Assembly (NCBI GenBank): GCA_964503895.1
Contig: CAZDCF010000005.1
Coordinates: 16,972 to 80,971 of the forward strand
Direction of reading: 5' to 3'
Length of the DNA stretch: 64,000 nucleotides
Source of the DNA: an uncultured Nitrospiraceae bacterium
GTDB taxonomy: Bacteria > Nitrospirota > Nitrospiria > Nitrospirales > UBA8639
This document shows positions 1 through 1,486 of the stretch, in pieces. Position numbers and translations under genes: made by a program. The stretch's first letter is position 1; each line of letters starts with the position of its first letter. The notes beneath the pieces are model-generated. The model made no database searches and was not told where the DNA came from. It saw only the letters and a list, made by a program, of their open reading frames with translations.

Positions 1-411
1 AATTGGTAGGAAAGGTGCGACAACCTCCAACGCAATATCCTGGGTCACAGTCATGGTCAGGACCACAGGACTGGACACCTCTTCTCCAACCTCGATAATT
101 TCATACTCACTTCGATATGTCTCTTGAATCGCACGTATCGAGAATATCCCATTTGCAGGCGCGATGAAGACAAACTCCCCTGCATCATCAGTTGTGTCGA
201 ACATGACCAATGCACCTTCTTGGTCACGCAATTCCACAGTTGCTTGGGCCACACGGCGCAAATCTTCGTTCTGTACATGACCCACAATCCGATGGCCCAG
301 AGAACCAGCCTGAGAGTCCTCTAAAAAACTAAAGACTGCAAAAAAGACAAAACCCCAAACCAGCAATTCTCGACTTTTTAATTTCCTTAAAAATATATTT
401 ATGTAAGACAT
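1..411 (-). CDS. N-terminal part (runs off the window edge) of an exported protein with a carboxypeptidase-regulatory-like domain; probable TonB-dependent receptor
   Basis: Own translation, absent from ORF track: ATG at 411, open to base 1. MSYINIFLRKLKSRELLVWGFVFFAVFSFLEDSQAGSLGHRIVGHVQNEDLRRVAQATVELRDQEGALVMFDTTDDAGEFVF...; signal peptide then IxGxV...ATV.L...TDxxGxF pattern typical of TBDR N-terminal extensions. The barrel itself is outside the window. Confidence 0.6.
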   Translation of the reverse strand, partial: MSYINIFLRKLKSRELLVWGFVFFAVFSFLEDSQAGSLGHRIVGHVQNEDLRRVAQATVELRDQEGALVMFDTTDDAGEFVFIAPANGIFSIRAIQETYRSEYEIIEVGEEVSSPVVLTMTVTQDIALEVVAPFLPI

Positions 412-545
412 AGTCACTCTATTCCAAAAAGAAGTAAGGGGTTGAAGGGCTCCTCAGGAAATACGCAGAAGACAATCATGTCCCAATGCATGCACACAGG
501 AAAAAGCCAACACACAACCCTGAAATGAAAAAAACAACGACGAGA

Positions 546-878
546 TTAGAAGAAGAGGGGTGGGCCTCGGGAGTCTTGGGAAGTGAGAACTACCGAAGAA
601 TAGACAGGATTTGATGCAAAGCATCGCTCTTGATTAACTTGAAGAGCAATATCGATTTCAACATGATCAAAGGCAATCGACCCACTGCCATTGGCCTGCA
701 GCCACTGGCACAAGTCAAAATCCGAGTGCTCATGGCCATCATGATCAATTTCCGAGAAAACGTGATGCACTTCTAATGCACCAGCAAACGCCAGAAGGCT
801 GAAAAAAAATAGTGCAACAAATATGGCTATCGCCGCTTGTGTAGAAGAGGGTCGATTTGGAAATTGAAAGATGTTCAT
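546..878 (-). CDS. DUF2946/CruR-like leader protein: TM helix, His-rich segment, C-terminal RGPP motif
   Basis: ORF track 546..905; start moved to ATG 878 because the promoter at 892-920 overlaps the longer start. Hydrophobic helix, HHVFSEIDHDGHEHSDFDLC, ends SRGPPLFF (RGPP codons 558-569). Confidence 0.7.
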   Translation of the reverse strand: MNIFQFPNRPSSTQAAIAIFVALFFFSLLAFAGALEVHHVFSEIDHDGHEHSDFDLCQWLQANGSGSIAFDHVEIDIALQVNQERCFASNPVYSSVVLTSQDSRGPPLFF

Positions 879-891
879 ATGATCGCTCGAG

Positions 892-920
892 ATCCTACCA
901 ACCAAGCTGTTTCAAGTCAA
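892..920 (-). promoter_or_regulatory. sigma70-type promoter of the RGPP leader/TBDR unit
   Basis: TTGACT-17nt-TAGGAT, with TGG just before the -10. Confidence 0.55.
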
Positions 921-923
921 TAG

Positions 924-940
924 TTGCAATTTGTTTGCAA
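924..940. promoter_or_regulatory. Palindromic operator-like site TTGCAA-N5-TTGCAA
   Basis: TTGCAATTTGTTTGCAA directly upstream of the -35 at 915-920. Confidence 0.4.
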
Positions 941-1054
941 TAAATAATTTGGCGAAGCCCAAAAGTGTAGTTACATTTTTCTCATAGGAAAAAGGATTCT
1001 GAGACTCTCGGGGGCTTGCAAAAAAGGCAAAACTCGTGGATTCAGAGAAGGGGA

Positions 1055-1486
1055 TTATTTTTCTACAAAAGAGGAGATGGCGGCAGCCAGTTCGGCGCCT
1101 GAGTTCAAAGCCGTGGATTTCCACCCAACACCGAGCCCCCCCCCAGCTTCCTCTTTAGGAATAATATGGAAATGCACATGAAACACGGCTTGATGGGCAG
1201 AAGCACCGTTATTTTGAAGAATATTATAATTTCTCACCCCTGTGGCTTTGAGAACCGCTCGACACAAACGCGGAAGGACCCAGCCAATGGCCGAAGCAGA
1301 TTCATCTGACAATTGATCCAGTGTTTCTGCTGGCTCTTTGGGAATAACGAGCGTGTGCCCCTTGGACAATGGATTTATGTCTAAAAAAGCAAGAACATAG
1401 TCATCCTCATACACCTTATGGCAAGGAATCTCACCATCAATGATTTTTCGAAAAATCGTATCAGCCATAGGAGACAGGATAAGCAA
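1055..1486 (-). CDS. HIT family nucleotide hydrolase (HinT-like)
   Basis: IFRKIIDGEIP, FLDINPLSKGHTLVIPK and histidine triad FHVHFHIIP; start may be ATG 1468. Confidence 0.92.
   Translation of the reverse strand: MLILSPMADTIFRKIIDGEIPCHKVYEDDYVLAFLDINPLSKGHTLVIPKEPAETLDQLSDESASAIGWVLPRLCRAVLKATGVRNYNILQNNGASAHQAVFHVHFHIIPKEEAGGGLGVGWKSTALNSGAELAAAISSFVEK

Follow-up and report, generated by a model that had tools for sequence, protein, structure and literature searches.

A short upstream open reading frame (uORF) on the minus strand of the window, by which we mean the whole 64-kb stretch of Nitrospiraceae DNA analysed here (G000:C5:16972-80971), probably encodes a leader peptide of the CruR/CutF kind that controls a TonB-receptor operon, and the metal to which it responds is most likely Zn(II). 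We put this reading at about 60% on the basis of the anatomy of the uORF, its conservation, a fixed-length ruler, synteny, and predicted RNA pairing. That the uORF product is a regulatory arrest peptide is a conclusion that the sequence comparisons make quite likely, and its family is probably a new zinc-linked variant of the CruR/CutF metal-sensing arrest uORFs, specific to Nitrospirales. An earlier inspection of the letters alone (the original prediction) had pointed out an open reading frame with a hydrophobic segment and the ending SRGPPLFF*. This frame is present, with its RGPP codons at 569-558, and encodes the product MNIFQFPNRPSSTQAAIAIFVALFFFSLLAFAGALEVHHVFSEIDHDGHEHSDFDLCQWLQANGSGSIAFDHVEIDIALQVNQERCFASNPVYSSVVLTSQDSRGPPLFF, which is laid out as MNIFQFPNRPSSTQ-AAIAIFVALFFFSLLAFAGA-LEVHHVFSEIDHDGHEHSDFDLCQW...SRGPPLFF. 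The coordinates of the features are collected in Table 1.

Relatives of the peptide were found by several routes. One protein database contained 36 homologues, a profile search of 1.84 billion proteins returned 87 cluster representatives, a match to the uORF was present in 34 of 41 related genomes, and a scan of one genome per prokaryotic species gave 175 genomic loci with the uORF. The best 80 of these 175 loci were used for the census of gene context; nearly all of them were labelled Nitrospirales, Nitrospiraceae, or Nitrospira, and they included the complete genome of Ca. Nitrospira defluvii, FP929003.1, in which the uORF stands at locus L053. The alignment of the homologues has four parts, namely, a hydrophobic N-terminus, an invariant block, a stretch nearly without conservation, and an invariant R-x-P-P near the end. 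The block follows the pattern [LQ]-[ED]-[VI]-H-H-x5-D-H-D-G-H-E-H-x2-x-D-L-C-x-W. In 22 aligned homologues, its columns H38, H39, D45, D47, H49, E50, H51, D55, L56, C57, and W59 were invariant, and HH..DHDGHEH..DLCxW was kept in the 87 representatives from the 1.84-billion-protein search. The R, P, and P of R-x-P-P were likewise invariant in the 22 aligned homologues and in about 85 further representatives.

Conservation of RGPP in relatives, on which the original prediction depended, was found in the form R-[A/G/P]-P-P in every full-length homologue, and more than 100 relatives, almost all labelled Nitrospirales, kept [S/P]-R-[A/G/P]-P-P through synonymous codon changes. Across 93 loci, the Arg was encoded by CGC, CGA, CGT, CGG, or AGG, all four Pro codons were used at each Pro position, the second position was Ala, Gly, or Pro (RAPP, RGPP, or RPPP), and the residue before the Arg was always Ser or Pro. 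The use of five Arg codons and of four codons for each Pro indicates that selection acts on the peptide, and this synonymous variation ruled out the possibility that R-x-P-P is kept merely as RNA. A chance open reading frame was ruled out by the conservation, with its numerous homologues and invariant motifs. A precursor of a ribosomally synthesised and post-translationally modified peptide was also considered and set aside; modifying enzymes were not seen in the neighbourhoods examined. The TTG at 905 is an unlikely start codon because it falls inside the predicted promoter.

The distance from the conserved Cys to the Arg of R-x-P-P was 46 or 47 residues in all 54 sequences measured. Among 61 further representatives, 60 agreed, and the one that did not is a scrambled fragment; in the window peptide the distance is 46 residues. 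After R[AGP]PP, the tail in relatives is mostly 2–5 residues long, typically 2–3, and is followed by the stop codon. RGPP and RAPP are the strongest arrest cores refractory to elongation factor P. Bacterial proteomes strongly exclude both except where they serve arrest, and the two are over-represented close to the C termini of small secretory proteins encoded upstream of TonB-dependent receptors, among others (PMC12992588). In CruR, the P and A sites of the stalled ribosome contain the two Pro codons (PMC12992588; structures in PMC10951233), and by analogy the window peptide is expected to stall while P106 occupies the P site and P107 the A site.

The N-terminal part of the peptide has the character of an export signal. 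The original prediction had described it as a transmembrane segment; the hydrophobic stretch is present, and its role as a stable anchor is questioned, since its end, judged by eye to be an AxA motif (AGA followed by LE), may mark a very hydrophobic cleavable signal peptide instead. A pattern of PFAGA, ASA, or AVA followed by LE or QD is conserved at this position in the alignment of the homologues. The sequence is suggestive of signal-peptide cleavage and of targeting through the signal recognition particle (SRP). In the block that follows, the His cluster with a single Cys in place of CXXC that had been noticed earlier is a cluster of His, Asp, and Glu with one conserved Cys (C57), and residues 36-59 are predicted to bind metal. 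The AlphaFold model of the peptide had a low mean predicted local distance difference test score (pLDDT) of 64.6; residues 12-64 were modelled as a single long helix and the tail as disordered, with pLDDT below 50 over residues 67-110. The model served solely to back the view that the spacer is disordered. Along the predicted helix, two i/i+4 ladders of ligands can be traced, H39-E43-D47-H51-D55 and D45-H49-D53-C57, an arrangement that would suit metal-induced helix formation.

These features bear on two explanations in which the peptide is not a metal-sensing switch. If it were a stable periplasmic or membrane-anchored metal chaperone, or a zincophore-like partner, that is simply co-expressed with the operon, R-x-P-P would have no regulatory role. 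The conserved metal-ligand block combined with an export signal would suit such a function, as would the second His-rich periplasmic protein encoded in the operon, and CutF was first taken for a chaperone (PMC9426467, discussion). However, a folded partner would not join an invariant length with an unconserved, disordered tail of 44 residues, and would not be expected to carry RGPP or RAPP, the tetrapeptides that bacterial proteomes avoid most strongly outside arrest (PMC12992588), always within a few codons of the stop. The gene is moreover always first in its operon and is followed by a non-coupled gap of 81–177 nt. We therefore consider a chaperone unlikely. An arrest peptide that monitors the export capacity of Sec or YidC rather than a metal, like SecM, ApdA, and ApdP, would likewise be small and secretory and have RGPP at its C terminus, as the known Sec monitors do (PMC7897499, PMC10987492). 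The genes downstream of the uORF are, however, never sec or yidC but always outer-membrane uptake genes in zinc-related loci, and an invariant His/Asp/Cys block is unneeded for export monitoring, which makes this explanation highly improbable.

To complete the downstream genes, the rest of the contig (L002) was used in addition to the window. The exported-protein start that had been proposed at 411 is an ATG that does open an exported protein, and the probable TonB-dependent receptor of the original prediction turned out to be an 806-aa protein with an N-terminal CarboxypepD_reg domain, followed by Plug and TonB_dep_Rec_b-barrel domains, and with the end ...RTQWLF. Third in the operon is a gene whose 153-aa product is rich in His at its N terminus (FDHSTHESDHFEDEE..VHVHG; conserved as THExDHxED..VHVHG) and weakly TonB_C-like at its C terminus. 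This gene comes after the receptor gene in most loci of the receptor type (type A), and its product may be a periplasmic metal-binding partner.

Among the 19 relatives' loci examined first, the receptor gene directly followed the uORF in 11, and a gene for an exported protein of about 573 aa did so in 8. The census of the 80 loci gave the same two arrangements: about 58 had the order uORF, receptor, and TonB_C-like gene, often with PAP2 next, and 14 had the order uORF, 573-aa protein, ZnuA, ZnuC, and ZnuB. The synteny of uORF and receptor that had been anticipated was thus found in a broader form, with the uORF directly upstream of one of two outer-membrane transporter genes in about 72 of the 80 genome loci. 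Independent gene calls with Pfam annotation gave the same arrangements. Divergent COG0523 and ZitB-like cation diffusion facilitator (CDF) genes adjoined about 20 of the receptor-type loci in the census, and a FUR-family gene was nearby in about 9 of the 80.

The 573-aa protein had no Pfam or NCBIfam match except a faint hit to the BBP2 porin family, and it carries one or two N-terminal repeats of the form R-x-P-G-A-x5-P-K-D-L-x-x-R-T-G-G-M-P. It always lies between the uORF and ZnuABC (for example, L026:8454-10175, L007-L013, L020, and L036-L045) and is a candidate new outer-membrane zinc channel. In one of the 8 loci of this kind examined first, a 1.1-kb stretch (L016:1770-2912) that holds a CxxC-motif open reading frame ...RWPDGFVCPKCRG.. 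parts the uORF from the 573-aa gene; our guess is that this stretch is an insertion-sequence transposase, which would uncouple the switch. Some genomes had two uORF copies (L068/L070, L050/L072, L104/L108, and L085), including cases in which one copy fronts each operon type. In L085, both operon types adjoin each other in convergent orientation, one a receptor locus whose uORF copy is truncated and the other a 573-aa-protein/ZnuABC cluster.

The identity of the metal was judged from this context. For the ZnuA proteins of the uORF loci, the nearest matches were Synechocystis ZnuA (2ov1, 1pq4) together with the AztC and ZnuA models, the CDF neighbour was closest to ZitB, and the COG0523 neighbour was closest to the YjiA and ZigA models. 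These neighbours make up the component set of a zinc-starvation response, and zinc is therefore the most economical ligand. In the genome of the window itself, the uORF directly precedes the receptor and TonB_C-like genes only, so that the zinc-gene context is that of the relatives. The original prediction had left nickel, cobalt, and zinc as options, and of these the gene context points to zinc. Provided that the peptide is a sensor, we regard zinc as its reasonably likely ligand. The nearby FUR-family protein scored better against the Fur and PerR models than against that of Zur.

The same arrest switch might instead respond to another metal, either copper, as in CruR and CutF, or nickel or cobalt, as proposed for His-only CutF-like clusters. 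Nitrospira has copper enzymes, which counts for copper, and the N-terminal domain of the receptor gave faint hits to the NikL nickel/cobalt model. All characterised relatives sense copper (PMC9426467, PMC9973294), and the His-only CutF-like clusters adjoin HupE/UreJ (PMC9973294). On the other hand, the window peptide has neither CXXC nor a Met-rich Cu(I) motif, its ligands being His, Asp, Glu, and one Cys. The 14 of 80 loci in which the uORF stands upstream of ZnuABC have a binding protein closest to zinc-specific ZnuA/AztC, and the resemblance of the CDF neighbour to ZitB also argues for zinc. HupE/UreJ, PCuAC, CopC, and multicopper oxidase were unseen in the Pfam-listed loci, although the 80-locus census did not search for them. 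Taken together, these points leave another metal as a lesser possibility, with zinc preferred.

We then considered how arrest could act on the downstream gene. The spacer of 134 nt described as pyrimidine-rich in the original prediction occupies 545..412 and has a coding-strand pyrimidine content of 63% (T 43%, C 20%). In relatives, the intergenic region has a median length of 103 nt; its range of 81–177 nt is too long for translational coupling. No match to Rfam was found in window positions 300-1100, and no intrinsic terminator was found in the intergenic region. The last 60 nt of the uORF contain 40% C and 13% G in the window and, on average, 40% C and 17% G in relatives. C exceeded G more than 1.5-fold over these 60 nt in 65 of 71 loci, with the uORF body and the intergenic region balanced. 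A Rho-utilisation site has been mapped for cruR (PMC9426467).

Partition-function folds of 22 loci showed that, in most of them, the 21-nt region at the downstream ribosome-binding site (RBS) and start codon pairs mainly within the footprint of the stalled ribosome, as in the relatives' pairs CCUCCACGU with ACGUGGAGG, CCCAUCUUCCU with AGGAAGAUGGG, and CGCGCUCCUCCUCA with UGAGGAGGAGCGUG. The helices between the arrest region and the RBS shift register between lineages, so column-wise covariation was not countable, and energy-based controls replaced it as the test of pairing. The mean duplex energy between the uORF 3′ end and the downstream initiation region was −17.9 kcal/mol, compared with −12.5 kcal/mol for control genes of the same loci and geometry and −13.2 kcal/mol when RBS strength was matched. 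Native codons gave −17.7 kcal/mol and synonymous recodings −15.6 kcal/mol (mean z −0.8), a modest gain. Duplexes of a given RBS with its own uORF end were more favourable by 2.0 kcal/mol than duplexes with foreign ends (16 sequence clusters, p = 0.002); the reciprocal comparison gave no significant difference.

In the mechanism that we infer, from the stall and the metal sensed to the sign of the response and the path of export, the hydrophobic N-terminal signal would direct the nascent chain co-translationally into SecYEG. SRP-dependent co-translational export has been shown for CutF (PMC9973294), and the 20-residue hydrophobic core of the window peptide suits the same route. The ribosome would then stall at R104-G-P-P107 with P106 in the P site. 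At this stall, residues 36-59 would sit 47–70 residues from the peptidyl-transferase centre, just out on the periplasmic side, a distance that roughly matches the ribosome tunnel and the SecYEG channel taken together, and the fixed spacer of 46–47 residues would serve as a ruler. While the stall lasts, the downstream gene would be expressed, as the ribosome would cover the C-rich tract that otherwise pairs with the RBS, loads Rho, or both. Periplasmic metal, most likely Zn(II), would fold the block, and the resulting pull would free the arrest, so that translation terminates three codons later and the receptor is turned off. The regulated genes are uptake genes, and the metal should therefore switch them off, with arrest persisting when metal is scarce.

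Several observations weigh against this reading. The complementarity between the arrest codons and the RBS is largely automatic, with Pro and Arg codons facing a GGAGG site, and RNAalifold applied to 21 related loci gave eight consensus pairs and no compensatory pairs. In the window itself, the duplex of arrest codons and RBS is weak (−8.1 kcal/mol) and no better than that of synonymous recodings, the helix formed by codons 96-102 does not appear in the centroid structure, and the fold of the region does not surpass that of shuffled sequence (z = −0.51). As for the metal, the receptor resembled no characterised receptor, PDB sequence and profile searches detected no similarity between it and known zinc receptors, including ZnuD, and the ZnuA-type and COG0523 families are not exclusive to zinc but also contain Mn, Co, and Fe systems. 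The signal peptide of CruR is dispensable, and copper is thought to be sensed by it in the cytoplasm (PMC9426467); the periplasmic geometry proposed for the Nitrospirales uORF may therefore not matter.

In most relatives, unmasking of the RBS is at least as well supported as Rho termination of the CruR type. The window shares its weak RBS, GGAAUAGAG, with its nearest relative, and its duplex and fold are weak, so that the Rho route is at least as plausible as masking here. RNA masking and Rho termination could also act together.

Upstream of the uORF, a promoter and a candidate operator were found. The transcription start predicted from the promoter would give a 5′ untranslated region of about 7 nt without a Shine-Dalgarno sequence. 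Relatives show the same −35/−10 layout upstream of the uORF, and in L014 and L015 the uORF apparently begins at a GTG 6 nt past the −10 box (VAWFQKY and VEWIQKN, respectively), which suggests that the leader peptide is translated leaderless in these two loci. The palindrome TTGCAA-N5-TTGCAA occurs once in the 64-kb window, against 0.05 copies expected. It was found once per locus, just upstream of the uORF, in the loci of 13 relatives (among L004-L027) and was present in 23 of 70 genome loci; the version in L016 is a perfect 23-bp palindrome, ATATTGCAAATAATTTGCAATAT. Its 7-1-7 layout presumably resembles that of Fur-family boxes, and the palindrome probably adds transcriptional control by a Fur-family (Zur-like) repressor. 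Among the Nitrospira lineages without the palindrome (L056, L062, L066, and L071-L100), some have a GGATATT-N6-AATATCC inverted repeat upstream of the promoter, and other palindrome-less lineages have a conserved element, AAAGTCCA; these upstream elements lie about 90–170 nt before the uORF. The alternative repeats may reflect a different regulator.

Table 1. Coordinates of the uORF, its parts, and the flanking features. Positions are those of the window unless a contig is named.
Feature	Position	Strand	Description
Receptor gene, 5′ part	1..411	minus	continues past the window to G000:C5:14962
Intergenic region, 134 nt	412..545	minus	central hairpin; weak RBS GGAAUAGAG at 425-417
uORF (leader peptide)	878..546	minus	ATG at 878, TAA at 548-546; 110 aa
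Export signal, uORF residues 1-34	777..878	minus	basic n-region (R9), 20-residue hydrophobic core AAIAIFVALFFFSLLAFAGA, AxA before LEVHH
Putative metal-binding block, uORF residues 36-59	702..773	minus	E-V-H-H-x-F-x-E-x-D-H-D-G-H-E-H-S-D-F-D-L-C-Q-W
Spacer, uORF residues 60-103	570..701	minus	length kept, sequence variable
RGPP arrest motif, R104 G105 P106 P107	558..569	minus	three codons before stop
Tail codons LFF and TAA stop	546..557	minus	within the footprint of a ribosome stalled at RGPP
C-rich, G-poor tract	546..605	minus	candidate anti-Shine-Dalgarno arm, candidate Rho-utilisation site, or both
Codons 96-102 (GUAGUUCUC..UUCC.AAGA)	573..593	minus	pair with receptor RBS and AUG in the minimum-energy fold; weak evidence
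Sigma-70-type promoter	892..920	minus	TTGACT, 17-nt spacer, TG-TAGGAT; consensus scan
Palindrome TTGCAA-N5-TTGCAA	924..940	.	4 nt upstream of the −35 box; candidate operator
Third operon gene, 153-aa exported protein	G000:C5:14410-14871 (L002:7439-7900)	minus	just outside the window

Nascent peptides that sense transition metals post-transcriptionally have so far been shown for copper only (CruR and CutF), and no zinc or copper riboswitch is known (PMC9426467). A zinc-linked family, if true, would add one metal and one phylum to the reach of the principle, with a different ligand chemistry and a ruler of the same length. The shared ruler would provide a natural comparison for what sets the distance of 45–47 residues, the tunnel plus the translocon or co-translational folding. 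Zinc uptake in Nitrospirales would, if the reading is correct, be under control in two compartments, by a Zur-like repressor in the cytoplasm and by the uORF in the periplasm. In soils, oceans, and wastewater plants, Nitrospira oxidises nitrite and performs complete ammonia oxidation, which makes its acquisition of trace metals a matter of practical interest. Two uncharacterised candidates for zinc import across the outer membrane are also singled out by the family, namely, the divergent CarboxypepD_reg TonB receptor with its His-rich partner and the 573-aa protein before ZnuABC. That the peptide would be the first zinc-responsive nascent-peptide sensor, an exported leader gauging periplasmic Zn(II) while still attached to the ribosome, is a tentative proposal to which we give slightly less than an even chance.

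The general class of RAPP/RGPP uORFs upstream of TonB receptors is already published (PMC12992588). In the survey of Fujiwara et al. 2025, TonB-dependent receptors were among the genes over-represented downstream of such uORFs (PMC12992588), and the window peptide resembles ApdA, ApdP, and the SecM-related and TonB-related uORFs in being small and secretory, in ending with an RGPP or RAPP core, and in being encoded upstream of a regulated gene (PMC12992588, PMC10951233, PMC10987492). The RAPP/RGPP surveys classify by motif and downstream annotation, and their text does not contain the His/Asp/Cys family, the fixed ruler, or the ZnuABC association; the word 'zinc' is absent from the text of PMC12992588, and full-text literature searches found no paper on a zinc-responsive arrest peptide. 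Zur-regulated uptake (ZnuD/ZnuK-type receptors, ZnuABC, and COG0523; PMC4176598) has the same zinc-starvation component set as the uORF loci, in which the palindrome just upstream of the −35 box is a candidate Fur-family operator. Zur-regulated uptake differs in that control by Zur is transcriptional alone, with no leader-peptide layer described, and the receptor of the window is not detectably related to ZnuD.

A match to DUF2946, the family of CruR, had been put forward as a check of the original prediction, and none was obtained: the window protein had no Pfam match at E <= 10, and the Pfam and NCBIfam scans assigned the uORF peptide to no family. Four of about 30 relatives gave co-linear matches to DUF2946 (PF11162; profile length 117) of 12.6–16.3 bits (E 0.017–0.25), below the gathering score of 23.7 bits, and these matches span profile positions 45-117, from the HH block to RAPP. 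The profile of the uORF family, when searched against the 1.84 billion proteins, returned only carriers of D-x-C-x-W and no CXXC proteins. Remote homology with DUF2946 is possible. In Caulobacter, the czrCBA Zn/Cd efflux genes are immediately preceded by CC2720, a DUF2946 gene that has a predicted Zur-box and is down-regulated with them (PMC4176598), so true DUF2946 members may sense metals besides copper.

CutF of Rhodobacter capsulatus has CxxxC and PPP, and copper increases its stalling, which turns on a detoxifying oxidase (PMC9973294; bioRxiv 10.1101/2025.02.05.636593). By the features that define CutF-like proteins, the window peptide is shorter than 150 aa (110), has PP within its last 15 residues (106-107), is followed by a same-strand gene within 1 kb (134-nt gap), and has a signal peptide as judged by eye. 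As with CutF, the nascent chain would sense periplasmic metal during co-translational export by SRP and Sec. In CutF, an RNA structure hides the downstream RBS and the stalled ribosome opens it; such a structure is predicted in most of the relatives studied here and is weak in the window. The target here is an uptake system, so that, unlike in CutF, metal should release the stall. The His-only CutF-like clusters beside HupE/UreJ (Ni/Co) have been noted as probably sensing other metals (PMC9973294), whereas the Nitrospirales uORFs adjoin TonB receptors or ZnuABC; neither the Nitrospirales family nor a link to zinc is described in that paper.

The closest parallel in layout is CruR (Bp2923) of Bordetella pertussis, which has CXXC, a stretch of 45 residues, and RAPP three residues from its end; copper relieves its arrest, and lengthening the spacer by five residues impairs regulation (PMC9426467). 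In both systems, the uORF is the first gene of the operon and has an N-terminal export signal, a fixed spacer (45 aa in CruR and 46–47 here), and R-A/G-P-P three residues before the stop, its 3′ end is rich in C and poor in G, and a long intergenic region then leads to a gene for a TonB-dependent metal-uptake receptor. The expected logic is also the same, with metal freeing the arrest so that uptake goes off. The two differ in the sensing element, which is CXXC in CruR and HH..DHDGHEH..DLCxW with a single Cys (C57, in DLCQW) here, and in their setting, Proteobacteria and copper in the former and Nitrospirales with a zinc-pointing context in the latter. They also differ in the route to the downstream gene: Rho-dependent termination alone is documented for CruR, whereas a helix between the arrest codons and the RBS is predicted in the relatives of the window uORF.

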